32,000 bases of DNA, taken from an uncultured Chloroflexia bacterium (lineage in GTDB: Bacteria > Chloroflexota > Anaerolineae > Anaerolineales > Anaerolineaceae). Position numbers and translations under genes: made by a program. Location: contig OY969938.1 of NCBI GenBank assembly GCA_963704755.1, forward strand, positions 2,850,001 to 2,882,000, read 5' to 3'. The notes beneath the pieces are model-generated. The model made no database searches. It had not been told where the DNA came from and was given only the letters and a program-made list of their open reading frames with translations. Below are positions 3,354 to 28,810 of the stretch, one piece after another (position 1 is the stretch's first letter; each line of letters begins with the position of its first letter).

Positions 3354-3695
3354 TTAAGGAATGAGCAAGGCTCTTCCTACGACTTGCTGAGCTTCAACGG
3401 CCTGATGTGCTTTTGCAGCCTCCGCTAATGAATAAGTATAGTCTGTTTTGACCGAAAGCTTTCCTTGTTCAACCCATGAAGTAAAGGCCTGAAAATATTC
3501 CGGCATCTTACTATTGAATTGAGACTTCAATAGTAACTGCTCAGCCCAGCGGGGATGAAACCCGAATTTGATGTGCGTGCGGGGGCGAAGCCCCCGCACG
3601 CACATCAAATTCGGGAACTTCTTAACAGGAGCCTGAGTAGTTACCTTCAATATAGTCTTTGTCCTAACACCAAACTGGCATGCTAAGGTGAACAC
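3354..3695 (-). pseudogene. 3-prime remnant of an MDR-type quinone oxidoreductase/alcohol dehydrogenase, interrupted by element E1
   Basis: The C-terminal ...FQAFTSWVEQGKLSVKTDYTYSLAEAAKAHQAVEAQQVVGRALLIP matches the typical MDR C-terminus. No N-terminal catalytic or Rossmann part is present. 40 codons in the middle are element E1 plus one target repeat. Confidence 0.45.
3533..3644. mobile_element. E-family nested-palindrome MITE-like element E1 (112 bp)
   Basis: Termini GTAACTGCTCAG / CTGAGTAGTTAC. Flanked by a perfect 8-bp direct repeat CTTCAATA (3525-3532 and 3645-3652). Apical 25-bp perfect stem 3561-3585/3591-3615 with loop CGAAG. Confidence 0.7.
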
Positions 3696-3698
3696 TTT

Positions 3699-4130
3699 TT
3701 ATTGCGTCGGTTGATCCAGGTACCCGTAGCCGATATACTTCAAAATCAACCGCGCCTTGTCGCCCAGCAGGTCTTGCTCGTGGGCCAGGATATCCGTGAT
3801 TAATTCGATCAGCGGGGCTTCACCGTCCCAGTTGCCGGTCAAAATCTCGTCCCCCAGGGCCTGGCGAATCTGATTGGCGGTAAAGGCGCACAGCCAGATG
3901 TCATCCACATAGCCGTAGGGCCCTTCCAGACTTTCCGGAATAACGTCGGCCGGCAGGATGAAGTACGATATGGTCACCAACACCAGCGGGCGCAGGTGGA
4001 TGGGCAGGCGGGGATCGTCCAGCAGGTGGGTCAACAGGCGGTACAACGCCGGCGCCTGGTAGATCAGGTCGTCGTGGCGGCCTTCGTAATCAGCGATGTC
4101 TTCCCGGAGAAGGATGTCGAAGTCTTTCAT
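3699..4130 (-). CDS. DUF1232 (YkvA-like) protein
   Basis: Starts at MKDFDILL with an AGGAGA RBS about 7 nt upstream. Motif YFILPADVIPESLEGPYGYVDDIW is typical of DUF1232. Lies 20 nt downstream of the helicase stop, so probably the same operon. The longer 202-aa ORF extension overlaps the helicase gene. Confidence 0.7.
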   Translation of the reverse strand: MKDFDILLREDIADYEGRHDDLIYQAPALYRLLTHLLDDPRLPIHLRPLVLVTISYFILPADVIPESLEGPYGYVDDIWLCAFTANQIRQALGDEILTGNWDGEAPLIELITDILAHEQDLLGDKARLILKYIGYGYLDQPTQ

Positions 4131-4150
4131 GCGTTCTCTCCTGAATAGGG

Positions 4151-7100
4151 TCAGGGCGATGGAGTGCCTTCGGAATAAGGGCAGACCTGGTTGAATTCCT
4201 GGCATTGGGCGCAGTAGGAGCGGTTGGGCGGGAAATCTTCGCCTGCGATACGCGCGAACAGGTCTTCCAATTGGGCGGCAGCCCCGGACTTTTGCTGCGG
4301 GTCCCAATCCCAGCTCTCGGCCCGGTCGTCTCCCAGGAAATGGACGGTGGTCCGCGCGACCGGCCGCTCCAGGTCGTTCTCCACCCCGATGGCGTAGATG
4401 GAAAGCTGCAATTTGGCCTGGTCGATCTCTTTGGGCGTCGAGCGCGACGTTTTGAAATCGACGATCTCCAGCCTTTCTTCCCCGTCCCGGCGGACCAGGT
4501 CGATCTTGCCCTGCAAGACCTGTTCTCCAAAGGCAGCCGAGAAGGGCGTCTCCGCCTGAACGGTCTCGGCCAGGCGCGGGCCGTACTCCTGCAAGTAACA
4601 GCTGAGATGCTGGATGGCATATTTTTTGAACTTTTGCTCCAATTTCGCGGTTGCCTGAGCGGGCAAAAGCCAGTTGGCATCCACCAGGGCCGGCAGGTCT
4701 TCGACCGTGGTGGAATCGCCCTGCAGGGCGCGCCGGTGAATGGCCTCCAGGCAGCGGTGGACGTTGGCGCCATAGTTGACCGGGTCCAGCCAGGGGACGG
4801 CCAGTCCGTACACGACCGAATATTTATAGCGCAGCGGGCATTGCAGATAATAGGCCAGTTGCGAATAGCTGTAGCGCGGGCGCGGCCCCTGCTCGCGGCC
4901 GGCGGCCCTGCTTTCGATCTCCTTGACCTTTTCCTCTGAAAACTCGGCCGCGCCTTGCAGATCGTCGCCGAACATCTCGTGTACAAACGGGCTGGGTCCG
5001 CCGCCGCGTTTGTTGACCACGTCGGCCGTGCTGACGATAAGCAGGTCCTGGGCGCGGGTGGCCGCCACGTAGAACAGCTTGCGCTCGTCCACCAGGTGGG
5101 GGTCGTCCACCTCCGGCTTGCCGCTGGCGCGTAAATCATAGGGGATCTCGTAGGGGTCTTTGCGCCGGGTGGAGGGCAGGCGCCCGCTCATGGCTGCACC
5201 CAGCACGACTACCGGGAACTGCAAGCCCTTGGCCTGGTGGATGGTCATGATGCGCACACAGTCGTCGATCTCGGGCACGGCCGCATCTACGCCGCCCTGG
5301 CGCATCAGGTCCAGGTATTCGCGGAAGGGATAGAAGTTGCGGGTCGAGCCGAACTCATCCCAGGCGGCTACCAACTGGCTGAAGATGCCCAGGTTGGACA
5401 GAGCCGTACGCTTTTCGACCATTTCGAAGCGCCCCAGGCAGCCGGTGATGGACAGCAGCTCGTAGAACACGCCCAGGGCCGAGCCGTGCTCCTGGGCCTG
5501 CACCTTGCGCTTGAGCGCCAGCAGCCGCTGCAGGCGGCGCAGGTCGGCCGGCTCGCGGATGCCGATCTCCCGCCAGCCGGCCTCATCGCTGATTTCGAGC
5601 AGGTTGCCCTTGTGGGCCTTCAAAGCGTCGCAGGCGGTTTCGCTCAATCCCACCAGCGGGTCGCGGACATATTTATCGCCCCATTCTTTGGAGGAGCCCA
5701 GGAAATTGAACAGGTCGTAAAGCTGGGCGATCTCGTCTTTATCGAACAAGGTGGCATCGCCGAGCACCTGATTGGGGATGCCCTCATCATTGAGCGCCGT
5801 TTGGTAGGCCTCAGCATAATTCTTGACGCTGCGCAGCAGGACGACTACCTCGCCGTATTGGTGGATACGCCCGGAGGCGCGCAGCCGGCCGAGCATACGG
5901 GCCACCGCGGCGGCTTCTTCGGGAGCGGAGTGTTCATACACCAGGAAGATGTCGTTACCCGGGCCGCGGTAGGACACCAGGTCCTTCTCGAAGCGGGCCG
6001 GGTTGTTGTGGGCGATGACTTCCAGCGAATGGCGCACCACCGGAGTGTAACTGCGGAAATTATCCACCAGGGTGACCTGGTGAACATTGGCGTAATGGTC
6101 CCCGAAGTCGTAAAGATTTTTTACCGTGGCCCCGCGGAAGCGGTAAATGCCCTGGTCGTCGTCGCCGACCACGGTCAGGGCACACCCATCCCCGGCCAGC
6201 AGGCGGATGATGCGTTCCTGGGCGGCGTTGGTGTCCTGGTATTCGTCCACCAGGATGAGCGGGTACTGCCGTCGTAGATCCGCCACGATAGCGGGGTTCT
6301 TTTCCAACAGGTCGAGCGCGTGGCGCTGCAGGAAGGCGAAATCGACCAGCGAATGGTCCAGGAGGTGCCGGCAGTACAGCCGGTAGGCCTCGGCGACGAC
6401 TTCTTTTTCCTTCCACAGGTCGATTTCTTTGGCATCGCAGTTGGATTGGCTTTTCTGGCACCACTCTTCCAGCCTGTCCGGCTCGACCAGCTCCTCGGTA
6501 GCCAGGTTGAAGGTGCGCAGTACCGCGTTGAAGAAGTCCTGCGGACGGCCTTTGACGATCGTATCCAGCCCGAAAGCTTTGCGGTTGGAATAGACCTGCA
6601 GAAACTGGCCGTTCTGGTCCAGGATGCGGTAGCCGTGCGGCAATGCCGATTGGGCGGCGTAGCGGCGCAGCAGGTTGGCGCAAAAGGCATGCACGGTGGA
6701 GACCTGCATGGCCTCGACGTTGACCTCGGGCAGCTTTTTCTGGATGCGGTCTTTTAATTCCAGGGCGGCCTTTTCGGTAAAGGTGACCGCCAGAACCTGG
6801 CCCGGCTGGGCCTGGCCGGACCGCACCAGGTAAGCCACTCGCCGGGCGATCACTTCGGTCTTGCCCGAGCCGGGCCCGGCGATGATCATCAGCGGCCCAC
6901 CCTGGTGCAGAACCGCTTCGCGCTGCGGGGGTTTGAGACCCGTGAGAATCTCTTCCAGCAGGCCGGGCAGCAGGCTGTCCAATCCCTTGTGGGCGGCCGG
7001 GTTGTCCGGGTCGAGCGCCAGGACCTTGCGTATGCAAACTACCCGCTCCGGGTCCGTATCGACGGCGCCCGAAAGCCACAGCCAGGCCTGGATGTTGTGC

Positions 7101-7195
7101 GGATCTTGCTGGACGGCCTGGTTGAGCAAGCTGCGTGCCATGGTTTTGTCCCCAGCTTTAAGCGCCTGAATACCTTTATTGGTTAACTCATCCAT
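4151..7195 (-). CDS. TPR / UvrD-PcrA-type SF1 helicase / Cas4-AddB-like PD-(D/E)XK nuclease fusion protein
   Basis: 1014 aa. N-terminal TPR-like ~75 aa. Walker A AGPGSGKT. Motif II LILVDEYQDTN. C-terminal nuclease: LQCPLRY (Cys1), GKIDLV, EIVDFKT, QLSIYA, and terminal CAQCQEFNQVCPY (a 4-Cys cluster pattern). Confidence 0.85.
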   Translation of the reverse strand: MDELTNKGIQALKAGDKTMARSLLNQAVQQDPHNIQAWLWLSGAVDTDPERVVCIRKVLALDPDNPAAHKGLDSLLPGLLEEILTGLKPPQREAVLHQGGPLMIIAGPGSGKTEVIARRVAYLVRSGQAQPGQVLAVTFTEKAALELKDRIQKKLPEVNVEAMQVSTVHAFCANLLRRYAAQSALPHGYRILDQNGQFLQVYSNRKAFGLDTIVKGRPQDFFNAVLRTFNLATEELVEPDRLEEWCQKSQSNCDAKEIDLWKEKEVVAEAYRLYCRHLLDHSLVDFAFLQRHALDLLEKNPAIVADLRRQYPLILVDEYQDTNAAQERIIRLLAGDGCALTVVGDDDQGIYRFRGATVKNLYDFGDHYANVHQVTLVDNFRSYTPVVRHSLEVIAHNNPARFEKDLVSYRGPGNDIFLVYEHSAPEEAAAVARMLGRLRASGRIHQYGEVVVLLRSVKNYAEAYQTALNDEGIPNQVLGDATLFDKDEIAQLYDLFNFLGSSKEWGDKYVRDPLVGLSETACDALKAHKGNLLEISDEAGWREIGIREPADLRRLQRLLALKRKVQAQEHGSALGVFYELLSITGCLGRFEMVEKRTALSNLGIFSQLVAAWDEFGSTRNFYPFREYLDLMRQGGVDAAVPEIDDCVRIMTIHQAKGLQFPVVVLGAAMSGRLPSTRRKDPYEIPYDLRASGKPEVDDPHLVDERKLFYVAATRAQDLLIVSTADVVNKRGGGPSPFVHEMFGDDLQGAAEFSEEKVKEIESRAAGREQGPRPRYSYSQLAYYLQCPLRYKYSVVYGLAVPWLDPVNYGANVHRCLEAIHRRALQGDSTTVEDLPALVDANWLLPAQATAKLEQKFKKYAIQHLSCYLQEYGPRLAETVQAETPFSAAFGEQVLQGKIDLVRRDGEERLEIVDFKTSRSTPKEIDQAKLQLSIYAIGVENDLERPVARTTVHFLGDDRAESWDWDPQQKSGAAAQLEDLFARIAGEDFPPNRSYCAQCQEFNQVCPYSEGTPSP

Positions 7196-7280
7196 AATGC
7201 AACCCCTGAACTCTTTCCGCGGCGCGCCTGGAATGGGGTTTGTCGCGCGAAGCCATTTTATCCCCCGGTTTCTTTATGTC

Positions 7281-7309
7281 ACTATAGCAGAATTGTGAGG
7301 AAAAGGCAA
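7281..7309 (-). promoter_or_regulatory. Candidate sigma-70-type promoter for the helicase operon
   Basis: On the minus strand TTGCCT (7304-7309), a 17-nt spacer, then TATAGT (7281-7286), about 85 nt upstream of the ATG at 7195. Confidence 0.3.
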
Positions 7310-7512
7310 CGAGGGGTAGAGTTGAACGAGGAGATGAGGGCATGAGGGAAGAGGAGAAGAAAGGGGAGCGCTTGTGGCTTTCTTATGTTCCTTTGACAAA
7401 AATCAGGAAGATTGTCATCCAGCCGTGGTCGAACTTTGCCTGAAGGGCATGCTGCGTACCAGGGCGTGGCGACTTCGGCCGCGTTGTCGTTGATATTGCG
7501 AACCCTTTCGAA

Positions 7513-7540
7513 TTGACAGGTTGAAATTTTGAAGTATAAT
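7513..7540 (+). promoter_or_regulatory. Near-consensus sigma-70 promoter
   Basis: TTGACA (7513-7518), a 16-nt spacer, then TATAAT (7535-7540), 53 nt upstream of the ATG at 7593. Confidence 0.55.
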
Positions 7541-7543
7541 TTT

Positions 7544-7576
7544 TTATTAATAAACCGTCTGACGGTTTATTAATAA
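7544..7576. promoter_or_regulatory. 33-bp perfect palindrome between the -10 box and the RBS (candidate operator or 5-prime-UTR hairpin)
   Basis: TTATTAATAAACCGTC t GACGGTTTATTAATAA: 16-bp arms with a 1-nt centre. Confidence 0.5.
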
Positions 7577-7592
7577 AAAAGAAAGGTGCATA

Positions 7593-8039
7593 ATGTCTCA
7601 AACTTTTGCAGAAATACTTATTCTTATCCCGACCACCCTGTCGGCCGGCTTTTTATTGGCCGTTTCGGGCGTGATCCAGAAGGTGATGAATGATCTGGAT
7701 GAAGCTACATTCAAGCGTTTCTTGACCCTGCTGGAACGGCACGCGATGCACTCCCCCTTTGCACTTTCGGTGTCGCTGTTGACCTCGATCGCTGCGGTAC
7801 CTTATTGGATCATTTACCGGTTCCATAACGTCTGGTTTACGGCCGGGCTGGTGGTTTGGTTTGTAGGCGCCACGGTCAGCAAGATTCTTAACATGCCCAT
7901 ATACAAAAAAGTAAATGAACTTGGCGATGGTCAGGTGGAGGAACTAAAAGAAGAACGCCGGAAGTTGCAGACCGCCAACGATGTGCGCGCTTGGCTTAAC
8001 TTTATTTCGGTGATCCTCATGGTAATTGGGTTGGCCTGA
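7593..8039 (+). CDS. Small integral membrane protein (DUF1772-like)
   Basis: 148 aa with four hydrophobic segments and KILNMPIYKKVN resembling the DUF1772 N-x-P-x-N region. RBS GAAAGG upstream. Visibly AT-richer than the surrounding genes. Confidence 0.5.
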   Translation: MSQTFAEILILIPTTLSAGFLLAVSGVIQKVMNDLDEATFKRFLTLLERHAMHSPFALSVSLLTSIAAVPYWIIYRFHNVWFTAGLVVWFVGATVSKILNMPIYKKVNELGDGQVEELKEERRKLQTANDVRAWLNFISVILMVIGLA

Positions 8040-8109
8040 AAGTTGGCGTTTGGTGAGAACCGGCACCTGATCTGTAAGTAGATTAAAATGGGTAAACCGG
8101 TTTTAGATT

Positions 8110-8221
8110 GTATTTGCTCAGTCTAATGGATAAGAGATACGAAATTGGAGTGTTCGCGGGAGCCTCGCCCCCGTCAACACTCCAATTTCAAGACCTTCTT
8201 GATATTTGTCTGAGTTGTTAC
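8110..8221. mobile_element. E-family element E2 (112 bp)
   Basis: Termini GTATTTGCTCAG / CTGAGTTGTTAC. 14-bp perfect stem gaaattggagtgtt (8141-8154) / aacactccaatttc (8176-8189). The 21-nt apex resembles a decayed E1 apex (gcggg.gc...gcccccg). Confidence 0.6.
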
Positions 8222-8249
8222 AATTGATTTACACATTTTTGGAGAAGCA

Positions 8250-8969
8250 ATGGCGCGCACTATCAAGGAAGAGGAATATCAGGCCAGGCGGAACGAAATC
8301 CTGGACTTCGCCCTACGCTTGATTTACACCAAGGGTTACGAAAAAATGACCATTCAGGACATCCTGAATGGTCTGCAAATTTCCAGGGGAGCCCTGTACC
8401 ATTATTTCAATTCAAAAAAGGCGCTGCTCGAGGCCCTGGTGGACCGCATGGGACAGACTGCGCAGCAGAGCGTCCTTCCTATCATACAGGACCCGGACCT
8501 GTCTGCCCTGCAAAAATTCCAACGCTATTTTGAAATCTCGGCCAACTGGAAAAGCTTGCAAAAGGAGTTTATTTTGACCCTTTTGCCAATGTGGTTCAGC
8601 GACGAAAATGCCTTTATCCGCCAGAAAATGACCAGTGAAACGCTGGCCCACACCTCGCCATTGCTCGAGGCTATGATCCGCCAGGGCGTTGAGGAAAAGG
8701 TTTTCACCACCCGTTACCCGCAGCAGTCGGCGGTGATTATCGCCGGGATCTTTCTCACCTTTGCGGAGGTAATCGTTGGACGGCTGCTCGCCCCACAACC
8801 GGATGGGGCCGGCTCGGGCGACCTCCAAAATACCCTGAACGCCTATTCCGACGCCATCGAGAGGATACTCGGAGCCCCCGCGGGCTCACTCAAATTCTTT
8901 GAGGTTGCCGATTTCCAGGGTTGGCTGGTCGCCTCTGCGCCGGAACCCGGGCAGGCAAGTGGCTTCTAG
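8250..8969 (+). CDS. TetR/AcrR-family transcriptional regulator
   Basis: N-terminal HTH: YEKMTIQDILNGLQISRGALYHYFNSKKALLEALV. 239 aa. Confidence 0.85.
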   Translation: MARTIKEEEYQARRNEILDFALRLIYTKGYEKMTIQDILNGLQISRGALYHYFNSKKALLEALVDRMGQTAQQSVLPIIQDPDLSALQKFQRYFEISANWKSLQKEFILTLLPMWFSDENAFIRQKMTSETLAHTSPLLEAMIRQGVEEKVFTTRYPQQSAVIIAGIFLTFAEVIVGRLLAPQPDGAGSGDLQNTLNAYSDAIERILGAPAGSLKFFEVADFQGWLVASAPEPGQASGF

Positions 8970-8987
8970 CGATTAGCTGTTAGCTTT
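8967..8987 (+). repeat. TAGCNNN heptamer array (3 units) starting at the TetR stop codon
   Basis: TAGCGAT TAGCTGT TAGCTTT. TAG at 8967, 8974 and 8981, one in each frame. Confidence 0.6.
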
Positions 8988-9042
8988 CAGGATACGGTCG
9001 GGGCATGGCTTGATTGGTCCGGCGGTATCCAAAAGGCGAAAG

Positions 9043-9099
9043 GTACTACTCATATCCCTGAAAAAAATCAGTTTTTCCTTCGTTAGGCTGAGCAGTTAC
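9043..9099. mobile_element. E-family short form E3 (57 bp, no long apical hairpin)
   Basis: Termini GTACTACTCAT / CTGAGCAGTTAC. The right inner spacer ccttcgttagg resembles cttcttaacagg of E1. Only a 4-bp ctga/tcag mini-hairpin lies inside. Confidence 0.45.
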
Positions 9100-9127
9100 C
9101 AACGAAAAGTGGTTTTTGGACAGACCA

Positions 9128-11476: not shown

Positions 11477-11691
11477 CCTGGTGCTCCTTAGCCGAGACAA
11501 AACACCAATTCATTGGCTGGTTGTGAAACGATTGATTTGTATGAATCGATTCACTGAAATCTTGTGCGACGAAGGATATATAAATGCAAGATCACAACGC
11601 CGCGTTTAATTCAGGCTTCGGTATTGCAAAACCCCGCTAAGAAAATCCAACCTGTAATTTAAAAAGGAGATCTTTCCCCGCTGAATAATTT

Positions 11692-11816
11692 TAATTATAA
11701 CGTGAATTTGGGATAAAAGAAAAGAGAGGTAATTTGAGTGTGTTTTTATTCGCGGCGCAGCCGCCACGAATAAAAACACACTCAAAAACTCTTATTCCGA
11801 ATCGACATTAATTATA
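11692..11816. repeat. E-like nested palindrome E4 (different outer arms)
   Basis: Perfect 20-bp stem tttgagtgtgtttttattcg (11733-11752) / cgaataaaaacacactcaaa (11767-11786) with an inner gcggc-gca-gccgc tip. Imperfect outer inverted repeat taattataacgtgaatttggg / ccgaatcgacattaattata. Confidence 0.5.
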
Positions 11817-11905
11817 GCTAAATTAAGGTTAAAAATCAATGTGCAAAGGTATTGAAAAACGTCCTGCGTTAAAACCAAATTCTTCACCTCAAAAGCCGGA
11901 AAGAT

Positions 11906-12112
11906 TCAACCGTTTGAAGAATAGGTATCGGCAAGAAAAAACGTTTTGCAGGAAGGAAATTCACTGCAAACCAGGTAATCTTCGCCAATGTGTTCTCCGC
12001 GAACAGCTCTACGCCGTTCGAGCGGCGCACCACATTTAGGACAGCGCATGTTTTCGGCCGGAATAGAAGGCTTATCTGGTTCTTTTTGTTCGCTCACATC
12101 TTCGTTATTCAA
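11906..12112 (-). CDS. Topoisomerase-type C4 zinc-finger ORF, in frame with the upstream NERD ORF
   Basis: CPKCGAPLERRRAVRGEHIGEDYLVCSEFPSCK is the zf-C4_Topoisom pattern. The frame is open all the way up to the TGA at 12203-12205 that ends the NERD ORF. Confidence 0.5.
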   Translation of the reverse strand: MNNEDVSEQKEPDKPSIPAENMRCPKCGAPLERRRAVRGEHIGEDYLVCSEFPSCKTFFLADTYSSNG

Positions 12113-12202
12113 CCGGGCGATGATCCGCCTCTGGTTTTCCCATATTTTGAGGTTGTTGTAGCTGCGCTGAACCGGCTTATGCAGAAAATTCAGCAGGAAC
12201 CT

Positions 12203-12894: not shown

Positions 12895-13002
12895 GTTACC
12901 CCTCAGACTAGTTCGGAAATTAGGGGTGTTTTATTGTTTTTCGCGTGCTTCGCACGCGAAAAACAATAAAACACCCCTCTTTGGGGTTAGCAGAGTAGTT
13001 AC
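12895..13002. mobile_element. E-family element E5 (108 bp, opposite orientation)
   Basis: Termini GTTACCCCTCAG / CAGAGTAGTTAC. Perfect 26-bp stem 12922-12947/12953-12978. Loop CTTCG, the reverse complement of the CGAAG loop of E1 and E8. Confidence 0.6.
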
Positions 13003-14222: not shown

Positions 14223-14232
14223 AAGTGATATA

Positions 14233-14282: not shown

Positions 14283-14325
14283 AGCCCCTCTCCCGTTTCT
14301 GGGAGAGGGGTTGGGGTGAGGGCGA
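14283..14325 (+). repeat. R-family repeat, head-only copy R2
   Basis: agcccctctcccgtttctgggagaggggttggggtgagggcga. 10-bp stem cccctctccc/gggagagggg. Confidence 0.65.
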
Positions 14326-14578: not shown

Positions 14579-14724
14579 GCCCCTCTCCCGTTTCTGGGAG
14601 AGGGGTTGGGGAGAGGGCGACCCCCCCGGCCGCACAAGCCCTGTTGGGTTACGGGCAAAGCCCGGTAAAACGGAAGCCTTTCCATACGCTGGCGTAATCA
14701 AAGAGCCCGCAACCCAACCTACGA
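14579..14724 (+). repeat. R-family repeat copy R3
   Basis: Head ggcccctctcccgtttctgggagaggggttggggagagggcga. Internal gggttacgggcaa. Tail gcccgcaacccaacctacgag. Confidence 0.65.
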
Positions 14725-16200: not shown

Positions 16201-16305
16201 CTCCCTGAAGAAAATGTAAGGGAGAACTGCCCTATGTGTGGAGAGCAGAGAAGCTGCTCTCCACACATAGGGCGGCCTTCTTTGGGTTTCGGAGTATTTC
16301 AGGAG
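16201..16305. repeat. E-like nested palindrome E6
   Basis: Perfect 20-bp stem gccctatgtgtggagagcag (16229-16248) / ctgctctccacacatagggc (16254-16273). Loop AGAAG. Outer imperfect arms ctccctgaagaaaat / gtatttcaggag. Confidence 0.5.
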
Positions 16306-16336: not shown

Positions 16337-16450
16337 GATAACCAAATGACCTGACGGGAAAGCCATTCCCGGACTTGAGGTGATTGCAGAGGCGAAGTAC
16401 CTGCAATCACCTCAAGTCCGGGAGCTCGCCACCATAAGCCTGAGTAGTAC
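16337..16450. mobile_element. E-family element E7 (left terminus decayed)
   Basis: Right terminus CTGAGTAGTAC (16440-16450). Perfect 22-bp stem 16368-16389/16401-16422. Loop aggcgaagtac contains GCGAAG. The stem is homologous to that of E8. Confidence 0.5.
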
Positions 16451-16501
16451 CAAAAGTCTTTTTCTCACCGGCCGGAGCAGTTACAATAAATCTCGTAGCC
16501 T

Positions 16502-17620: not shown

Positions 17621-17812
17621 AGCCCCTCTCCCGCTTCTGGGAGAGGGGTTGGGGTGAGGGCGAAGCCCTGGGCTATCACGGCGCCGGCCGGGAAAGAGCC
17701 CTAATCCACCGTTTGGTGGTATTGGGAATGGTGGGTTACGGGCAAGGTTGGGGATGTCAAGCCGGCCGGTGATCCGCCGGCGCTATCGACGAGCCCTGCA
17801 CCCACCCTACAG
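17621..17812 (+). repeat. R-family repeat copy R5 (~190 bp)
   Basis: Head agcccctctcccgcttctgggagaggggttggggtgagggcga. Tail gcacccaccctacag, running directly into the heptamer array. Confidence 0.7.
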
Positions 17813-20124: not shown

Positions 20125-20127
20125 GGG

Positions 20128-20733
20128 TTATCCCGGGTGGCGCAGACGGGGCAGGAACGCCGGGGTGCGGCGGCGGTAATCAGCGTAAGCCCGGCCGAAC
20201 TCGTCCATTAACTTTTCCTCCTCGAAGTGAGATCCGATGATGAAATAGGCCATAACCCCCAGGTTGAAGGCCAGCCCGTTCCAGGTCAGGGTTGGGCCGA
20301 GCCACAGAAAGAACAGCGTGCCGGTATAAAGCGGATGGCGCATCCAGCGGTACAGGCCGTTGGTCACCAACACCGGCTTGCGCTGCCCGGACTGGGGATC
20401 CAGCAGCGCGTCCAGGCCAAGGAAGCGCATCGCCCCGGTCTGCAAGACGCCGTAGATGACGATCACCACCCCGGCCAGTTGTAAGCCATATGCCAGATAC
20501 TGCCAGGGAGCAGGTATGCGATAGATGGCCCGGTCTGGCAGCAAAACCAGCAGAGCCAGGGAGGGGAGAAAGGTCAATCCGCCCTGGATGGAGAAAAACA
20601 GGCGGTAGTAGCGGCTGCCCTGGGGCCCCAACCGGCTCGCCACAGCCTGTTTGACCAGCCGTGAGGCCAACAGCGAATGGAGGGCTCCATACAGGACCAG
20701 GGATAACAGAATCCACCAGAAACCAGGCGTCAA
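20128..20733 (-). CDS. Isoprenylcysteine carboxyl methyltransferase (ICMT)/NnrU-like membrane methyltransferase
   Basis: GLYRWMRHPLYTGTLFFLWLGP...EEEKLMDEFGRAYADYRRRTP. TTG start with AGGAGG 6 nt upstream. Ends 3 nt before the comEC start. Confidence 0.75.
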   Translation of the reverse strand: MTPGFWWILLSLVLYGALHSLLASRLVKQAVASRLGPQGSRYYRLFFSIQGGLTFLPSLALLVLLPDRAIYRIPAPWQYLAYGLQLAGVVIVIYGVLQTGAMRFLGLDALLDPQSGQRKPVLVTNGLYRWMRHPLYTGTLFFLWLGPTLTWNGLAFNLGVMAYFIIGSHFEEEKLMDEFGRAYADYRRRTPAFLPRLRHPG

Positions 20734-20893
20734 TTGATTCCTCCTGGTAGTAATTTTACACGGTCTGGTGAAAAAGAAGCCCGTAGAATAGGGGGAAGAT
20801 AGCGTATATTTTTTTAAACGAGCCGGTTGGGCTCAAGGTTCGTTGGGAGCCTGGTGTGGATGCCGGTGGTGGATAAACTGCGTGTTTTCGGTT

Positions 20894-22693: not shown

Positions 22694-22707
22694 ACAATTT
22701 ACCCAAA

Positions 22708-23535
22708 ATGCCAAAAGCAGCCGGAATTTATTACTCCCTTTTTTCCAAAGGCAGTCACGAGCAAAAGCCCGTGGTTTTGATCCATGGGGCGGGCAGTTCA
22801 CGCCTGAGCTGGCCGGCTGAGCTGCGCCGGATTTCCGGCCATACGGTATATGCGCTCGACCTGCCTGGCCATGGGGCTTCGGCCGGGGTAGGCTACCAAT
22901 CGGTGGCCGGCTACTGTGAGGCTTTGATCGCGTTTATGGCCGAGTTGGGCATGTACCAGGCCATTTTTACCGGGCATTCGCTGGGCGGAGCCATTGCCCT
23001 GAACCTGGCCATCGATTTTCCCCAGCATGTTGCCGGCCTGGCCCTGATCTCCAGCGGAGCCTTTTTTAATCTGCCTCCCAACCTGCTGGACTATCTCAGC
23101 AATCCGGCCAGCGCTTCGGCAGCCCTTCAGACGATCCACGCGTTATCCCTCTCGCCGCAGACCAGCCCGGCGCTGGCAGCGCGCTCGCTGGAGGCGCTTA
23201 AATCTACCCGGCCGAGTATCCTGTACAACGACTGGACTGCCTGTGCCCAGTTCGACTTGCGCAACCGGATGACCGAAATCAGTGTGCCGGTCTATATCGC
23301 CTGCGGTCGCGAGGACCGCTTTGTGCCGCCATCCCAATCCCGCTACCTGGCCGAGAACATCCCGGAAGCGCATCTGGATACCCTCTCCGGAGCCGGCCAC
23401 CTGGTGATGCTGGAGCAGCCGGCCGCGATCGCCAGCGGGTTCAGCGCTTACCTGGAAAAAATCGAGCACTGGAGCAGCGACTACTCGCTCCCGCTTGCGG
23501 CCAAAAAGGAACACCAGGCCAAAAACTCCGGCTAA
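22708..23535 (+). CDS. Alpha/beta-fold hydrolase
   Basis: VLIHGAGSS, nucleophile elbow GHSLGG, C-terminal GAGHLVMLEQP. Confidence 0.8.
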   Translation: MPKAAGIYYSLFSKGSHEQKPVVLIHGAGSSRLSWPAELRRISGHTVYALDLPGHGASAGVGYQSVAGYCEALIAFMAELGMYQAIFTGHSLGGAIALNLAIDFPQHVAGLALISSGAFFNLPPNLLDYLSNPASASAALQTIHALSLSPQTSPALAARSLEALKSTRPSILYNDWTACAQFDLRNRMTEISVPVYIACGREDRFVPPSQSRYLAENIPEAHLDTLSGAGHLVMLEQPAAIASGFSAYLEKIEHWSSDYSLPLAAKKEHQAKNSG

Positions 23536-23554
23536 AAATACGGCTCTTTCCCAG

Positions 23555-23605
23555 AATACAACCAGAGGTTGCCCCAAATCATTTTGGGCAACCTCTGGTT
23601 GTATT
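23555..23605. terminator. Long hairpin between convergent genes (candidate bidirectional terminator)
   Basis: aatacaaccagaggttgcccc-aaa / tttgggcaacctctggttgtatt with a one-base bulge. Followed by a second hairpin gccgggaagg / ccttccggc at 23611-23637. No E-type termini. Confidence 0.5.
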
Positions 23606-23651
23606 TAGAAGCCGGGAAGGGGATAACCTTCCGGCTTATCCGGTCGACGGG

Positions 23652-23936
23652 CTATTTTTCCGGGGTAATTTCGTTGTTGATCACCCCGACGGGCTGTTCT
23701 TCGGTTACACCAACAGGCTCGTCTGGGTTGATTTCGTTATTCACCCGGCCAATTTCCGGCTCGAGGTTTTCTTTCAGTGAGTGTTCTTCGGGATCAATCT
23801 CATTGTTGAGTAATCCTCGCTCGTGCTGGATGGGCTTTGTATCCCCAACAAGGCGCGGGTGCAGTTCGTTATTGATCCGTCCAATCGGTTTTTGACTCTT
23901 TTCCTTGTACTCTTCCATTAAGGTTTTGTCGATCAT
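23652..23936 (-). CDS. Small (94-aa) acidic protein with four G-x-[ILV]-N-N-E-[IL]-x-P repeats, unknown family
   Basis: ATG 23936 with AAGGAG 7 nt upstream. Repeats PIGRINNELHP, RGLLNNEIDP, EIGRVNNEINP and PVGVINNEITP. Confidence 0.55.
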   Translation of the reverse strand: MIDKTLMEEYKEKSQKPIGRINNELHPRLVGDTKPIQHERGLLNNEIDPEEHSLKENLEPEIGRVNNEINPDEPVGVTEEQPVGVINNEITPEK

Positions 23937-24186
23937 TATCGAACTCCTTTCTGCTGCGCTACCAATTGGCCGGACAACCTGGATAATCAGGTAAACGCAA
24001 AATCGCCCAGTTTCTATGGGCTTGAGCGGTAGCACGGCAAAATCGGCCGGGTGTTCTAGTTTTGGTTTAGCACCGACTGGCAGGTGCTGCTGTCCAATCC
24101 AATTCGTAGCCTAAGTGCACCTGGCTTTCGTTTGCCCTTCAGGCTTTTGGGAAAGCCGTGCACAACTTTTCTTTGGTTATGATTTC

Positions 24187-24195
24187 AGTATACCA
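24187..24195 (-). promoter_or_regulatory. Candidate extended -10 promoter (TGgTATACT) upstream of the repeat-protein gene
   Basis: The minus strand reads catGGTATACT, with TG one base upstream of TATACT. It would give a ~240-nt leader. The palindrome tgttaat-tattt-attaaca (24202-24220) overlaps the -35 position. Confidence 0.3.
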
Positions 24196-24409
24196 TGGGT
24201 TTGTTAATTATTTATTAACATACTCTAAGATATCGCATTTAGCCGGCATACACGCTTACCAGCCATTCTGGGAGAGACAAGGCGTTGACTGCTGGTTGTC
24301 GCTGATTTGAAATGAGGTATAGAATGCCACCTGGTGCTCTTCTTCCGGCGGAGAGGCGGCCGGTGGGCAGGTTTTGAAACGAAGCGTAATCCTGGCTTGA
24401 AAAGCTATA

Positions 24410-25594
24410 CTACAGGTATTCTTTCAACTGCCGGGACCGGCGCGGGTGACGCAGGCGGCGCAAGGCTTTGCTTTCGATCTGGCGGATGCGCTCACGGGTC
24501 AGGCCGAACTTTTGGCCGACCTCTTCGAGGGTATACGTGTGGCCGTTATCCAGACCGAAACGCAGGCGCAGGATGCGTGCTTCGCGCGGGGGCAGCGTTT
24601 CCAGAACGGCCTCGACCTTCTCCCGCAGCATTTTGTTATAGGCGCTCTGGATGGGCGAAGGGGTAAGCTGGTCCTCGACGAACATGCCCAACTCGGAGTC
24701 TTCTTCGTCGTCGTTGATCGGGCTTTCCAGCGAGAGCGGCAGCCATGAGACGCGCATCATCCAGTCTATCTTGTTTGCCGTGGTCCCCATGGCATTGGCC
24801 AGCTCTTCGTTGTTGGGGACCCGCCCCAATTTTTGCTCCAGTTCGTGGCTGGAGCGGTACAACTGGCGGATGCGATCGACCATATGCACCGGCACGCGGA
24901 TGGTGCGGCCCTGGTCGGCGATGGAGCGGGTGATCGTCTGGCGGATCCACCAGGTGGCGTAGGTGGAAAAACGGAAGCCGCGGCGATATTCATATTTCTC
25001 CACGGCTTTCATCAGTCCCAGGTTCCCTTCCTGGATAAGGTCCAGAAAAGGGACACCCCGGCCCATATAACGCTTGGCCACGCTGACGACCAGGCGGGTG
25101 TTGGCCTTGATCAGGTGTTCGCGGGCCAGGTCGCCATCTTCCACCAGGCGCTCCAGCTCCAGACGCTGCTGCGTGGAAGAGCGCACGGTCAGCTTTTCCA
25201 GAGAACGCCGGGCAGCCCGGCCATCCTCGATCCGCTGGGCCAGGCCGGTTTCTTCTTCGCTGTTGAGCAGCGGCACGCGCGACATTTCTTTCAGGTAAAG
25301 CCCGATCGTATCGTCGCTGGAGATCGATTCAATCCCCATGAACGGTTCCAGGTCCTCGACGCCTTCGATCAGGTTGTCGTCATATTTTTCGGTTGTATCC
25401 GATTCGGGGTCCAAGAATTCGACGCCGCGCCGGCGGAGCGCGCTGACAATCGTGTGGAAGCGGTCCACGTCCTGACCGACATCCGGGTAAACTTCGATTA
25501 AATCTTCGGTAGTCAGATAACCTTGTACGTCTGCCTTTTCCAGCAGCATACTCAGTTTTTCAGTGCTTTGCTTGCGTCTGCCTGGATTAGCCAC
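24410..25594 (-). CDS. rpoD: Primary RNA polymerase sigma factor (sigma-70 family, group 1)
   Basis: Regions 1.2-4.2: RLVVSVAKRYMGRGVPFLDLIQEGNLGLMKAVEKYEYRRGFRFSTYATWWIRQTITRSIADQGRTIRVPVHMV...LEEVGQKFGLTRERIRQIESKALRRLRHP. GTG start with AGGAGG 6 nt upstream. Confidence 0.95.
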   Translation of the reverse strand: MANPGRRKQSTEKLSMLLEKADVQGYLTTEDLIEVYPDVGQDVDRFHTIVSALRRRGVEFLDPESDTTEKYDDNLIEGVEDLEPFMGIESISSDDTIGLYLKEMSRVPLLNSEEETGLAQRIEDGRAARRSLEKLTVRSSTQQRLELERLVEDGDLAREHLIKANTRLVVSVAKRYMGRGVPFLDLIQEGNLGLMKAVEKYEYRRGFRFSTYATWWIRQTITRSIADQGRTIRVPVHMVDRIRQLYRSSHELEQKLGRVPNNEELANAMGTTANKIDWMMRVSWLPLSLESPINDDEEDSELGMFVEDQLTPSPIQSAYNKMLREKVEAVLETLPPREARILRLRFGLDNGHTYTLEEVGQKFGLTRERIRQIESKALRRLRHPRRSRQLKEYL

Positions 25595-25809
25595 GAACTA
25601 CCTCCTATTATTCGTACTCCCCGCTAGGATCTGGCCGAACCTTCCCAACTGCACATTATTCTCTGGTGAGCCAAGGCGATAAATAGATAGCCGTCACCGC
25701 GCGGAAATTTGGCCCGGTCTTCCAGTAATACGGGCATAATTACCGCTTTGAGAAATCGCAAATATGACAAAAGAATCCCCTTTATTTGATCTGGCCGGCC
25801 GGCAAAGGT

Positions 25810-26289
25810 TTATCCGGAAATTGCCTGAGGATAGTGCTCGCAGACCGTTTCGTTGAGATTAGCCCCACAATACGGGCAAAGGCCCTTGCAATCGGCGCGG
25901 CAAATAGGTTTAATGGGCAATTCCAACAGAAAATAATCACGCGTAAGCGGTGCAATATCGATATAACCGCTTTGAGGTATATAAAATTCGGTTTCTGCAT
26001 TCCGGCGGAAGCGAAAACCGAACAACTCGGCGTAATTAACCTGAAGAGACTGATCGAAGGTTTCCAGGCAACGAACACATTCCTGTTCAACTTTCCCGGA
26101 AAAGTTTGCTTCGACCAGTAAACCCTGGGGTGTCCGGCTAATACGAGCCACACCACTGAAGTCAGTTAGTTCAAAATCCGCAGATAATTGGACAACCGAG
26201 AATTCAAAGGGGAAGTCGTGATTGGTCCCGATCGTTTGATTAATCAGGAATCCAACATTAATTCGCAGAGGGAAGCGAGAAGATGTCAC
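25810..26289 (-). CDS. yceD: DUF177 (YceD-like) protein
   Basis: 159 aa with C-terminal CRADCKGLCPYCGANLNETVCEH, typical of YceD/DUF177. Confidence 0.8.
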   Translation of the reverse strand: MTSSRFPLRINVGFLINQTIGTNHDFPFEFSVVQLSADFELTDFSGVARISRTPQGLLVEANFSGKVEQECVRCLETFDQSLQVNYAELFGFRFRRNAETEFYIPQSGYIDIAPLTRDYFLLELPIKPICRADCKGLCPYCGANLNETVCEHYPQAISG

Positions 26290-26395
26290 AGGAAGTTATT
26301 CGTAGTTATAATACCGAGTAGCGCTATTATAGCATAGCGATATGGTCTCGTCAAGAAATTAAGATTAATATTATAAAAATATAGGTTATTAACAA

Positions 26396-27004
26396 ATGCA
26401 ACTTCTTATCGCCAGCTCGAATACAGGAAAACTTCGTGAAATTCAAGCCATCCTGGCCTGTTTGCCTTTTGAACTGCTCTTGCCCACCGATCTGCACCTG
26501 GATCTGGATGTGGCCGAGACCGGCAGCACTTTTGCTGAAAACGCTGCGCTCAAGGCCCGCGCTTATTGCCAGGCCAGCGGACTGGTCTGCCTGGGCGACG
26601 ATTCCGGCCTGGAAGTGGATGCATTGGACGGCGCGCCGGGCCTGTACTCGGCCCGCTACTCGCCCGACCCGCATGCCACCGATGCCGACCGGCGGGCTTT
26701 GCTGTTGCAAAATTTGCACAGTTATCCCCTCGCCGACGGAATGCCTGGCTGGGCGGCTCACTTTACCTGCTCGGTTGCGATCGCCAGCCCGAATGGACCG
26801 CTTGAACTTGCCCATGGCCGTTGTGACGGTTTCATCATCCCCGAGGAACGCGGCCAGAACGGGTTTGGCTATGATCCCATTTTCTTTATGGCCGAGTTCG
26901 ACCGCACAATGGCCGAATTACCGGAGGAACTGAAGAACCAGGTCAGCCACCGCGGGCGGGCCATTCGGGCCGCATTGCCGATCTTGCAGGGCCTGATCGA
27001 TTAA
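26396..27004 (+). CDS. rdgB: Non-canonical purine NTP (dITP/XTP) pyrophosphatase, RdgB/HAM1 family
   Basis: LLIASSNTGKLREI, GDDSGLEVDALDGAPGLYSARY, GFGYDPIF, SHRGRA. Confidence 0.9.
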   Translation: MQLLIASSNTGKLREIQAILACLPFELLLPTDLHLDLDVAETGSTFAENAALKARAYCQASGLVCLGDDSGLEVDALDGAPGLYSARYSPDPHATDADRRALLLQNLHSYPLADGMPGWAAHFTCSVAIASPNGPLELAHGRCDGFIIPEERGQNGFGYDPIFFMAEFDRTMAELPEELKNQVSHRGRAIRAALPILQGLID

Positions 27005-27039
27005 TTTCCTGGGTTTTGTTTGCGCCAACCTGGCCGGGG

Positions 27040-27786
27040 CTAACAAGACCTCAGCCCAAAAAGTTTATCGTCGATTTCCAGGTAGATGCGCTTGTTGATC
27101 TTGCCTTTGCTCTTATAATCCACCACGCGCACTTTGCCGACCTCGCTTGTGTTGGCCACGTGGGTGCCGCCGTCGGCTTGCAGGTCCAGGCCCACCAGCT
27201 CGACAGTGCGGATCTCGCTGATCTCGGGTGGGAGCAGGTTAATCTTGGTGCGGATCAGGTCGGGGATGGCGAACGCCTCGGCACGGGGCAGAATGCGCAC
27301 CTGCACCGGGTGGGCATTCTGGACTTCCTGGTTGACCACCGTTTCGATGACCGCGACCAGCTCTTTCGAGAGGTTCTCGAATTCGAAGTCCATACGTCCT
27401 TTGAGCGGTTCCATGTCCCCGCCGGTGACCAGGGCGCCATAATCGCGAAAAACGGTCCCGCACAAGATGTGCATGGCCGTATGGGTGCGCATCAGCTTGT
27501 AGCGGCGTTCCCAATCGATCACGCCGTGCAGGTGGGTCCCGATGGAGGGCAGAGGGGCTTCTTCCGCCAGGCTGTGCCAGATCCCATCCGGTGCTTTGCG
27601 AGCGCGCAGCAGGGTCCAGTCCTCGCCGTCGTAGGAGACCAGGCCCAGGTCGTATGGCTGGCCGCCTCCGCCCGGGTAAAAGGCGGTGCGGTCCAGGAGA
27701 ATAGCGTGGTTGGCTGCATCCACCGCTGTCACGCTGGCATCGAATTCTTTTAAATAACTGTCGGTTTGATAGAGAAGCTCGGTCAT
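27040..27786 (-). CDS. alaX: Alanyl-tRNA editing protein, AlaX-M type
   Basis: HTAMHIL and GGTHV zinc/editing motifs. 248 aa. N-terminal beta-barrel plus editing domain architecture. Confidence 0.85.
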   Translation of the reverse strand: MTELLYQTDSYLKEFDASVTAVDAANHAILLDRTAFYPGGGGQPYDLGLVSYDGEDWTLLRARKAPDGIWHSLAEEAPLPSIGTHLHGVIDWERRYKLMRTHTAMHILCGTVFRDYGALVTGGDMEPLKGRMDFEFENLSKELVAVIETVVNQEVQNAHPVQVRILPRAEAFAIPDLIRTKINLLPPEISEIRTVELVGLDLQADGGTHVANTSEVGKVRVVDYKSKGKINKRIYLEIDDKLFGLRSC

Positions 27787-27886
27787 ATCAGGCGCTTTCC
27801 AGGGGAATTTTCAATAATTATATTGCCATTCGGGCCTGATATTGACCACAGATGGACACAGATGCACACAGATAAAAACTTTTTTT

Positions 27887-27998
27887 GTAACTACTCAGTC
27901 AGACAAGAAAGAGCCCTGAAGTTGAGGTATTTGTGCAAACGAAGCTTGCACAAATACCTCAACTTCAGGGACTTTTTATCTAGAGTCTGAGTAGCTAC
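27887..27998. mobile_element. E-family element E8 (112 bp)
   Basis: Termini GTAACTACTCAG / CTGAGTAGCTAC. Perfect 25-bp stem 27914-27938/27946-27970. Loop aCGAAGc. Confidence 0.7.
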
Positions 27999-28038
27999 CT
28001 TTGATTTTTTTTGTACCTAACGAAAAAAACAGAAGAAA

Positions 28039-28091
28039 GATCGCTATATATTTAGGAAGCGGCATTGCCGCTTCCTAAATATATAGCGATC
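28039..28091. repeat. Perfect 26-bp-arm palindrome E9
   Basis: gatcgctatatatttaggaagcggca t tgccgcttcctaaatatatagcgatc. The left spacer acagaagaaa resembles the E-family left spacer. Termini are not recognisable. Confidence 0.55.
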
Positions 28092-28137
28092 TTTTTGCGA
28101 TTTATCTGTGTGCATCTGTGTCCATCCGTGGCCTATC

Positions 28138-28725
28138 TCAAAGCGAGACTTCGTAGCGCATGATGGTGTGGGCGTGGGACGGTCGGGCGACCTCGACGAA
28201 GCCGGCCTGGCAAAAGGTTTCGGCCAGGCCCATGTAACTGCTGACCGGCGGGATGCGCTTTTCACCCGCCTCGACCGGGTAGGCCTCGATGATGCGAGCG
28301 CCCCGGCCGGCCGCGTAGCCGACCGCGCCTTTCAGAAGCGGTAGGAGCAGGCCCTGGTTGCGGTAAGGCTTGCCGACGAAGAAGCACACGATCGACCAGA
28401 CCGGCTGTTCGTCCAGCCGTTTGAGCATGTTTGAACGCTCCAGTGAGGCATACTGCTCGCGCGGGGCCAGTGAACACCAACCGGCCGGCTCGCCATCCCA
28501 ATAAGCCAGTACGCCGGGGATCTCGCCCGCATCGACCAGGGCTTTGAAAGCCTGGCGGTTGCCCTCGCCGGCGTTACGGCTGAACTCGGAGCGTGTGACG
28601 CGCCAGTACATGCACCAGCATCCGCTGTAGGCGCCGTTCTTGCCGAACAGTTTTTCCAGGTCGGGCCAGCGCTCCCGCGTGAGCGGCTGGATATCAAGGG
28701 TGAGGTCTTGGTTTTCTTTTGCCAC
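28138..28725 (-). CDS. GNAT-family N-acetyltransferase
   Basis: LTRERWPDLEKLFGKNGAYSGCWCMYWR...QGLLLPLLKGAVGYAAGRGARIIEAYP. GTG 28725 is preferred (AAAGGA 7 nt upstream). The 295-aa ORF extension crosses hairpin E10 and overlaps the CPBP gene. Confidence 0.75.
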   Translation of the reverse strand: MAKENQDLTLDIQPLTRERWPDLEKLFGKNGAYSGCWCMYWRVTRSEFSRNAGEGNRQAFKALVDAGEIPGVLAYWDGEPAGWCSLAPREQYASLERSNMLKRLDEQPVWSIVCFFVGKPYRNQGLLLPLLKGAVGYAAGRGARIIEAYPVEAGEKRIPPVSSYMGLAETFCQAGFVEVARPSHAHTIMRYEVSL

Positions 28726-28749
28726 TGGCACATCCTTTAATTTATTCGA

Positions 28750-28810
28750 AAGATATTTGGTGTTTGTTGTTGGGCGGCTTAGCCGCCCAACAACAAACAC
28801 CAAATATCTT
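28750..28810. repeat. Perfect 29-bp-stem hairpin E10 overlapping the CPBP stop codon
   Basis: aagatatttggtgtttgttgttgggcggc tta gccgcccaacaacaaacaccaaatatctt. The arm resembles those of E4 and E5. Confidence 0.55.

Follow-up and report, generated by a model that had tools for sequence, protein, structure and literature searches.

The most important finding of this study is that a stretch of 32,000 nt from an uncultured Chloroflexia bacterium of the family Anaerolineaceae (contig OY969938.1 of assembly GCA_963704755.1, positions 2,850,001 to 2,882,000 of the forward strand; hereafter the window) contains a family of MITEs (miniature transposable elements with inverted repeats) whose long central palindromes are probably homogenised by a DNA-level process, with template switching during replication as its likeliest route. 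The source is a finished 4.87-Mb genome. An earlier note, made from the sequence alone, had held that hairpin arms in this window diverge between copies yet stay perfectly complementary within each copy, with no mismatches and no G-T pairs, and had suggested a DNA-level process in which one arm templates the other. That note is partly supported: the pattern is real and non-random and the class of explanation was the right one, although its absoluteness was overstated.

The elements share a simple layout—a 12-bp end GTAACTRCTCAG, a spacer of ~16 nt, a stem of 23–28 bp, usually a 3-nt loop, and then the other half of the stem, a second ~16-nt spacer and the opposite end. In the window they are 108–112 nt long and have no coding capacity, and an 8-bp target-site duplication flanks each of them. 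Perfect inverted repeats with a stem of ≥20 bp and a loop of ≤14 nt number 12 in the window, and 20 shuffles of it gave zero perfect stems of ≥14 bp. Individual hairpins are designated E1 to E10, comparative copies and loci by L numbers, and their coordinates in the window are collected in the table below.

Arm complementarity, neutral decay and loop orientation

The two arms of these palindromes resemble each other more closely than neutral sequence of equal age does. As the neutral comparator we used the target duplications of the same insertions. Metagenome copies were picked by their left end plus 11 nt of the left stem base, so that the second arm was unseen, which yielded 113 unique elements; arm differences were scored by gapped alignment (an ungapped one gave false mismatches from 1-nt indels), and four palindromic contig ends with inverted flanks (L136, L172, L236 and L238) were left out of the target-duplication test. 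In the 64 copies with a recognisable duplication, the arms differ at 12 of 1360 pairs (0.9%) and the duplications at 43 of 512 (8.4%; Fisher P = 2e-15). Stems are perfect in 57 of these 64 copies, among them 10 of the 12 that have 2–3 mismatches in the 8 bp of their duplication. Counting each extra loop base as a hidden mismatch would bring the stems to 5.3% at most. Because short-read assemblers may swap a private repeat base for the family majority, a separate analysis took the 19 copies with arm sequences that occur only once in the data, which an assembler could therefore not have collapsed; it gave 1.9% versus 8.6% (P = 5e-4). The free right arm opposite the 11-nt anchor is mismatched at 0.5% per site, compared with 6.4% for the free right terminal repeat (P = 7e-11), and in the window itself, where the genome is finished, the stems of E1, E2, E5 and E8 differ at 3 of 101 pairs and their duplications at 10 of 32 (P = 3e-5). 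Arm differences are thus ~5–10 times rarer than target-duplication differences, and where a stem sequence is common to several loci only 1 of 907 pairs differs between the arms.

The second line of evidence is that changes in one arm are mirrored in the other. In an ungapped alignment of 15 distinct 49-nt stem-loops, 98.3% of cells are paired, both sides have changed in 10 of the 12 variable pairs, and there are 22 both-side-changed cells against 3.8 in shuffles, a count that none of 500 shuffles reached. The same set has 4 G-U cells along with 6 cells that are mismatched in another way. The commonest defects of the larger census are A-C (4) and G-T (2) mismatches, which occur in similar numbers; there is therefore no preference for wobble pairs as would be expected of a transcribed, selected RNA helix. 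The 50 perfect copies include 12 variants that are each confined to a single copy, where both arms carry them (the same comparison was uninformative for the spacers, which align poorly).

The third line of evidence comes from the loop and the tip of the stem. When loop orientation is read against the asymmetric spacers, the two orientations occur 6:6 and 5:4 in two Anaerolineae genomes, and 9:4 in 13 near-identical copies, each with just 4 point differences across 109 non-loop positions. We infer that loop flips per element are about as frequent as all point substitutions together, or ~100 times the per-site rate. Two locus pairs, L141/L216 (from sibling samples) and L007/L177, show no difference over 412 nt, flanks included, apart from the loop, which reads TCC in one member and GGA in the other. 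Moreover, 14 of 71 distinct stem-loops (~20%) are palindromes that run through their centre with a 'loop' of 0–1 nt, as do four long hairpins of the window. Tip bases cannot pair in a hairpin, and complementarity at the tip is therefore not selectable through folding. Finally, the orthologous copies L163 and L208, whose flanks are 94% identical, differ by a symmetric deletion at the tip that leaves a shorter palindrome perfect again. Loop inversion, through-centre palindromes and symmetric tip deletion are what a strand switch from one arm to the other is expected to produce. Together with the deficit of arm differences and the mirrored private variants, loop inversion and through-centre palindromes bear out the suggestion of the earlier note that one arm templates the other.

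Explanations for the perfect stems

The process that we consider probable is concerted evolution of the palindrome after insertion, in which a mutation in one arm would be either erased or copied to the other arm. The likely route is template switching, or quasi-palindrome correction: a nascent strand would briefly take the opposite arm, or the opposite strand, as its template before it returns. The same event would flip the loop and could render the centre fully palindromic. Such exchange between arms would let them drift from copy to copy while they stay Watson-Crick perfect within each copy. Correction would be fast without being instantaneous or universal, and copies with several mismatches or an indel would escape it and decay, or lose the hairpin altogether.

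Several observations weigh against this interpretation or limit it. First, imperfect arms have been inherited by several copies (L128/L213, and L209/L229 with TAGG versus TTTTG) and decayed relics exist (704–761, E2 and L208), so that correction must be leaky. Second, Mariprofundales have MITEs with the same ends whose palindromes are imperfect and conserved as such, and the effect is therefore not a property of the ends. Third, a set of elements from metagenome-assembled genomes gives a weaker contrast in the same direction (0.75% versus 2.3%, P = 0.053), these elements being younger because both ends were required to be perfect. Fourth, the comparative copies come mostly from short-read metagenome assemblies, in which a loop variant or a majority base can be assigned to the wrong paralogue, and the four palindromic contig ends mentioned above indicate that assemblers struggle with these elements. 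The two pairs that differ by an apparent loop flip at orthologous positions may thus represent polymorphism or mis-assignment and not events fixed in situ; the assignment of loop orientation to a locus is less certain than its existence. Fifth, there is no close relative of the source genome (64% identity for the best database match), so that changes in orthologous copies cannot be placed on a tree.

Among the alternatives, selection on a functional hairpin maintained by two-step compensatory mutation—a bidirectional terminator, an RNA element or a structure used in transposition—fares best, although we regard it as unlikely. It would account for the strong covariation, and in some subfamilies a GC-rich stem stands between an A6 run and a T6 run, as in bidirectional intrinsic terminators. 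The spacers that follow the stem are rich in T and C whichever strand is read. Hairpins of REPINs have been interpreted in this way (PMC3116915). However, G-U pairs are not in excess over other mismatches, perfection over 25–30 bp goes beyond any need of a terminator, complementarity often crosses the centre, where it cannot be paired in a hairpin, the loop is freely inverted, and an Rfam scan gives only spurious, microRNA-like hits. Furthermore, the genes on either side of E5 and of E7 are transcribed divergently, a setting that calls for no terminator and argues against termination being selected at every copy. Subfamilies with imperfect arms have also spread, and perfection is therefore not required for mobility. 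A terminator effect on neighbouring genes is plausible, judging from the run and stem composition. More generally, strong covariation in a hairpin, such as the 10 of 12 variable pairs seen here, is by itself no proof of selection on an RNA fold.

We give a similarly small chance to a dedicated hairpin-processing route in place of generic slippage, in which the extruded tip would be nicked or cleaved and then filled in, or in which a transposase of the ISBst12 type would be involved. Fill-in at the tip would yield zero-loop palindromes, much as P-nucleotides arise. If this were the route, the tip would be a hypervariable but always perfect module remodelled ~100 times faster than by point mutation, and the host might use the palindrome as a self-repairing bidirectional terminator.

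That the hairpins are perfect merely because they are young, being recently duplicated palindromes in ordinary decay that nothing maintains, is improbable. Several subfamilies are indeed recent bursts of near-identical elements with perfect target duplications, the window contains decayed and hairpin-deleted copies as well as E2 with its 3 mismatches, and A-C and G-T mismatches do turn up in the census. The earlier note had taken a census rich in mismatched or G-T-containing stems, in proportion to divergence, as the mark of such decay; stems of this kind exist, but they are far fewer than divergence predicts. In the same insertions, target duplications have decayed 5–10 times more than stems and the free terminal repeat ~12 times more than the free arm, and, given this contrast, the pattern is not accounted for by young copies that decay neutrally. 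Nor would youth explain why 10 of the 12 copies with 2–3 duplication mismatches are still perfect, why E5 and E7 have degenerate ends and fully paired stems (27/27 and 23/23), or why a unique variant in one arm has its mirror image in the other.

Regeneration of the palindrome at each transposition, whether through snap-back synthesis, hairpin-primed synthesis or a template switch in copy-out replication, would set perfection at birth, and we find it slightly less credible still. Both loop orientations occur among very young copies, and zero-loop palindromes resemble the products of hairpin opening. The spacers and terminal repeats are, however, not perfectly complementary within copies, and heteromorphic arms have been passed unchanged to several copies. 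Stems are also perfect where target duplications have since decayed, and the process must therefore act after insertion. For these reasons the snap-back regeneration proposed in the earlier note is not supported. Least likely is ectopic gene conversion between paralogues, with the palindromic stem pairing with its donor in either register and so flipping loops: many near-identical copies per genome and the near absence of arm differences in stems common to several loci (1 of 907 pairs) would fit it, but it cannot create the private variants seen in both arms of single copies and leaves unexplained the perfect stems of diverged, effectively single-copy relics such as E5.

The upkeep of perfect stems has long been a question for work on how RNA and DNA structures evolve, and template switching is a proposed answer. 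Comparative work in Proteobacteria supports template switching as a means by which imperfect inverted repeats are corrected to perfect ones (Lavi et al. 2018, PMC5941160), so the novelty implied by the earlier note does not extend to the homogenisation of inverted-repeat arms in bacteria. Template switching has also been inferred, from reconstructed histories of RNA genes, to create and maintain perfect stems, loop inversion being one of its outcomes (Monttinen and Loytynoja 2022, PMC8794818), and in yeast it is reported to result in arm homogenisation together with spacer inversion (PMC8604942). The elements described here resemble these cases of quasi-palindrome correction (Ripley model; PMC5941160, PMC8794818, PMC8604942) in their arm homogenisation, inversion of spacer or loop, multi-base mirrored changes and conservation of perfect repeats beyond neutral expectation. 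Unlike the published cases, they have 23–30-bp arms within a mobile family, with dozens of paralogues that act as natural replicates and with an internal neutral clock in the target duplications. The mechanism is thus known, and what is new is the MITE family and how clear the evidence is: these hairpins are a clean new example and not a new principle. With paralogues in dozens per genome, a clock in the duplications and the inverted loop as a by-product, the family offers an unusually clean test.

Two other systems invite comparison. In plastid non-coding DNA, loops between short perfect inverted repeats flip recurrently among close relatives with nothing else changing; unlike for the MITEs here, this takes place in an organelle and involves no mobile elements. 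REPINs are, like the window elements, short, non-autonomous, intergenic and palindromic, and compensatory changes in their hairpins were noted in 2011; they are doublets of repetitive extragenic palindromic (REP) sequences mobilised by the RAYT transposase, probably via a single-stranded intermediate (Bertels and Rainey, PMC3116915). The window elements differ from them in having 12-bp terminal repeats and 8-bp duplications, which are typical of a DDE transposase. REPINs are not known to have classical terminal repeats or fixed target duplications.

A MITE family recognised by its ends

The identification of these hairpins as parts of MITEs, which had been raised in the earlier note and which the evidence bears out, begins with a conserved 12-mer found ~16 nt outside the stems of E1, E2, E5, E7 and E8, with GTAACTRCTCAG as its left-hand and the complementary CTGAGYAGTTAC as its right-hand form. 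The motif has 10 matches in the window against 0.9 expected, and paired ends enclose E1, E2, E5 and E8. A search of the window with an nhmmer profile built from relatives recovered E1, E7 and E8 with E-values between 1e-12 and 3e-23 and also found two copies absent from the earlier note, the decayed hairpin at 704–761, which has many arm mismatches (arms roughly 14/21 by eye), and the hairpin-less copy at 9043–9099. The arms of E5 cannot be aligned to the family consensus, and this element is a member by its ends and geometry alone.

The family is widespread. Scanning one genome per species for the paired 12-mers located them in at least 119 genome stretches from many phyla; the matches listed include Chloroflexota (mostly Anaerolineae), Zetaproteobacteria, Gammaproteobacteria, Desulfobacterota, Elusimicrobiota, Acidobacteriota, Armatimonadota and others, and most of the elements among them have perfect 8-bp target duplications, as do 39 of 74 metagenome copies. 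An orthologous empty site is also available, since L009 is without an element that L100 has; all-against-all BLAST of the genome loci returned one orthologous region, which is this empty/filled pair. The window holds several copies, and there are many per genome in relatives. The ends, the 8-bp duplications and the empty/filled site make these elements true MITEs. Their interiors are unrelated between lineages and the ends alone are common to them, so that, on sequence grounds, this appears to be a MITE superfamily defined by its ends only. A 12-bp end found across many phyla with unrelated interiors would amount to an undescribed superfamily of ISBst12-type MITEs, and a literature search for papers naming both ISBst12 and MITE found none.

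The likely source of the ends was found by a full-text literature search with the 12-mer. ISDge4 of Deinococcus geothermalis, an insertion sequence of the IS66 family, ISBst12 group, has the ends GTGACTACTCAGCA and GTAACTGCTCAGCA and an 8-bp direct repeat, CCTCGATG (PMC12898284). Its terminal repeat is shared by the window elements in the form GTAACTGCTCAG(CA), with 12 nt identical to the left end of E1 and 13 of 14 when the next two bases are included, and the window elements likewise make an 8-bp target-site duplication. Unlike insertion sequences of the ISBst12 group, they are noncoding, and their interior is a long palindrome unrelated to the transposase gene. The ends and the duplication length, being those of the ISBst12 group, suggest that the MITEs are presumably moved by a transposase of that group. 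The mobilising enzyme is a matter of inference because no transposase with these ends lies in the window or the fetched loci: a Pfam scan of 20 large open reading frames (ORFs) of the window revealed no transposase, and 1.4 Mb of fetched loci yielded no element of 0.9–4 kb with these ends and a transposase ORF. Two intervals considered as autonomous elements, L030:1400-3728 and L054:5827-6834, were rejected as neither shows a transposase-like ORF on inspection of the listed ORFs (no Pfam scan). The second of these, which is 1008 bp long and adjoins a 121-nt MITE, shares the ends and has a duplication, GTATTTTT, that is perfect over its 8 bp.

Other kinds of element were considered and set aside. 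Integron attC sites and REP sequences with their RAYT came into question because of the GTAAC/GTTAC ends and a GTAG within the motif. An attC site has R''/R' core sites together with paired L boxes and extrahelical bases. The ends do not fit the attC core consensus (RYYYAAC ... GTTRRRY) and are followed by ~16 nt of unpaired spacer on each side, and the elements, unlike cassette-arrayed attC sites, are scattered among housekeeping genes in both orientations. A REP/REPIN-RAYT system is ruled out by the 12-bp terminal repeats and the 8-bp duplications, and no Y1-transposase domain was found among the 20 large window ORFs scanned against Pfam. Known structured RNAs were likewise discarded, as a scan of the window with Rfam 15 gives only sub-threshold hits of microRNA-precursor models on the perfect hairpins, and such models match any long perfect hairpin. 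The nearest database relatives of the window are Anaerolineae, the best non-self match being a conserved oxidoreductase that is 64% identical.

Several subfamilies and unusual copies deserve mention. The same ends and 8-bp duplication occur in a 121-nt family in Mariprofundales and sulfur-oxidising Gammaproteobacteria and in a 106-nt family in Desulfosarcinaceae. One subfamily carries heteromorphic arms, GTAGGCGC versus GTTTTGCGC, in L209, L229, L135, L128 and L213, and both of its 'homozygous' perfect forms occur in L185, L131 and L218, a set that looks like two-way conversion or recombination between two perfect parents. In L136, L172, L236 and L238 the palindrome runs through spacers and ends into the flanks, and the 'duplications' are mutual reverse complements; these are probably fold-backs made by the assembler at the hairpin, the alternative being real inverted duplications. 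Hairpin-less derivatives that keep both ends and spacers are found at 9043–9099 in the window and at about 12263–12317 in L141, which suggests that the palindrome is a deletion hotspot too.

Hairpins and other features of the window

Table. Hairpins, MITEs and related repeats in the 32-kb window
Feature	Position	Strand	Description
Decayed hairpin relic	704–761		GAATTTGATATATTTGCGGG ... CCTCGCAAATACCCCAATTTGG; no ends; nhmmer E = 4.5e-5
E1 target duplication	3525–3532 and 3645–3652		CTTCAATA; perfect 8 bp
E1	3533–3644		intact 112-nt MITE; nhmmer E = 3e-23
E1 left end	3533–3544		GTAACTGCTCAG
E1 hairpin	3561–3615		26/26 paired; loop GAA
E1 right end	3633–3644		CTGAGTAGTTAC
E2	8110–8221		older 112-nt copy; ends with 2+1 mismatches; duplication 5/8; nhmmer E = 2e-12
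E2 hairpin	8141–8189		full stem 20/23; A-C, G-T and C-C mismatches
Hairpin-less MITE copy	9043–9099		left-end-like GGTACTACTCAT, 33 nt, right end CTGAGCAGTTAC (9088–9099)
E4 hairpin	11733–11786		trimmed 20/20; full stem 24/25 with a single C-A mismatch (a G-T when read from the opposite strand)
E5	12895–13002		108 nt; degenerate ends GTTACCCCTCAG / CAGAGTAGTTAC; duplication 3/8; nhmmer E = 0.16
E5 hairpin	12922–12978		27/27 paired; loop TTC
E6 hairpin	16229–16273		20/20; loop AGAAG; T-rich run after
E7	16345–16451		left end past recognition; right end CTGAGTAGTACC (16440–16451); nhmmer E = 8e-14
E7 hairpin	16367–16423		23/23; 11-nt loop with GCGAAG inside
Solo end-like 12-mer	16473–16484	+	CGGAGCAGTTAC; 18 nt upstream of response-regulator start codon
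Second inverted-repeat element	27854–28123		perfect 23-bp ends: GGACACAGATGCACACAGATAAA (27854–27876) and complement (28101–28123)
E8	27887–27998		112-nt MITE; ends GTAACTACTCAG / CTGAGTAGCTAC; nhmmer E = 4e-19
E8 target duplication			CTTTTTTT/CTTTGATT; 6/8 match
E8 hairpin	27914–27970		25/25; loop ACGAAGC
E9 hairpin	28036–28094		29/29; one central base
E10	28750–28810		30/30 palindrome; one central base

The long perfect hairpins listed in the earlier note are real, and its counts of paired bases were right or slightly low for E1, E5, E6, E7, E8, E9 and E10. The 14/14 and 20/20 that it gave for E2 and E4, on the other hand, are products of trimming the arms, and its statement that there are no mismatches and no G-T pairs is untrue even within the window, where both of these stems are imperfect; A-C and G-T mismatches are added by the wider census. 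Its list of hairpins was skewed towards perfect ones and missed the decayed copy at 704–761 and the hairpin-less one at 9043–9099. The homology that it proposed among E1, E7 and E8 stands (P ≤ 0.0005 against the family consensus, 0.005–0.03 pairwise). A second homologous group of E2, E4, E5 and E10 cannot be told apart from a common G+T-rich composition (P = 0.04–0.45), and E2 belongs instead with E1, E7 and E8 (P = 0.001). That the differences between E7 and E8 are mirrored in the partner arm is true, but this is automatic once both stems are perfect.

Not all hairpins of the window belong to the MITE family. E4, E6, E9 and E10 have neither recognisable ends nor an nhmmer hit: the resemblance of E4 to the family consensus is marginal (P = 0.016), E10 shows no significant similarity to the family, and E6, which is unrelated to it in sequence, is the sole terminator-like call of a terminator scan among the hairpins of the earlier note. 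Folded as single strands, E1, E5 and E8 attain an extreme stability of −46, −36 and −38 kcal/mol, respectively (z about −10 to −12), and the decayed E2 folds at −21 kcal/mol.

The arms also share compositional features. The 5' arm is G+T-rich (60–85%) and the 3' arm A+C-rich in E1, E2, E4, E5, E7, E8 and E10 and in the subfamilies of L006, L009, L066 and L108, a skew that, the stems being palindromic, is the same on both strands; subfamily A (L004 and others) is without it. The heptamer GCGAAGC, which forms an exceptionally stable DNA mini-hairpin, is often found at the hairpin tip, on one strand.

Some MITE ends lie close to start codons. The right end of E2 forms a TACAAT box (GTTGTTACAAT, 8210–8223) that ends 26 nt upstream of the start codon of a TetR-family gene, and the solo end forms another (CAGTTACAAT, 16473–16486) that ends 15 nt upstream of that of the response regulator. 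MITE ends may therefore supply −10 promoter elements, as far as can be judged from these boxes. A promoter or operator role as the general explanation of the end motif was rejected, the overlap with a TACAAT-like −10 element being confined to two sites.

Other repeats are present in the window. The second inverted-repeat element contains the E9 hairpin and is broken by the insertion of E8, so that at least two palindrome-bearing, MITE-like families coexist here. A second repeated hairpin, the 'S-element' of the earlier note (CCCCTCTCCC-N6-GGGAGAGGGG), occurs at 2967–2992, 14285–14310, 14580–14605 and 17623–17648, and similar modules, CCCTCTCCC/GGGAGAGGG, lie within ISBst12-type MITEs of other Chloroflexota and Armatimonadota (L008, L077, L038, L095 and L102). 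Finally, the segment 7513–7597 has a consensus promoter (TTGACA, 16 nt, TATAAT; 12/12 matches) directly followed by a 20-bp perfect palindrome (TTTTTTATTAATAAACCGTC, central T, GACGGTTTATTAATAAAAAA) and then by the ribosome-binding site of ORF 7593–8039, just upstream of the TetR-family gene (8250–8969); from this arrangement, the palindrome looks like an operator and not a MITE.

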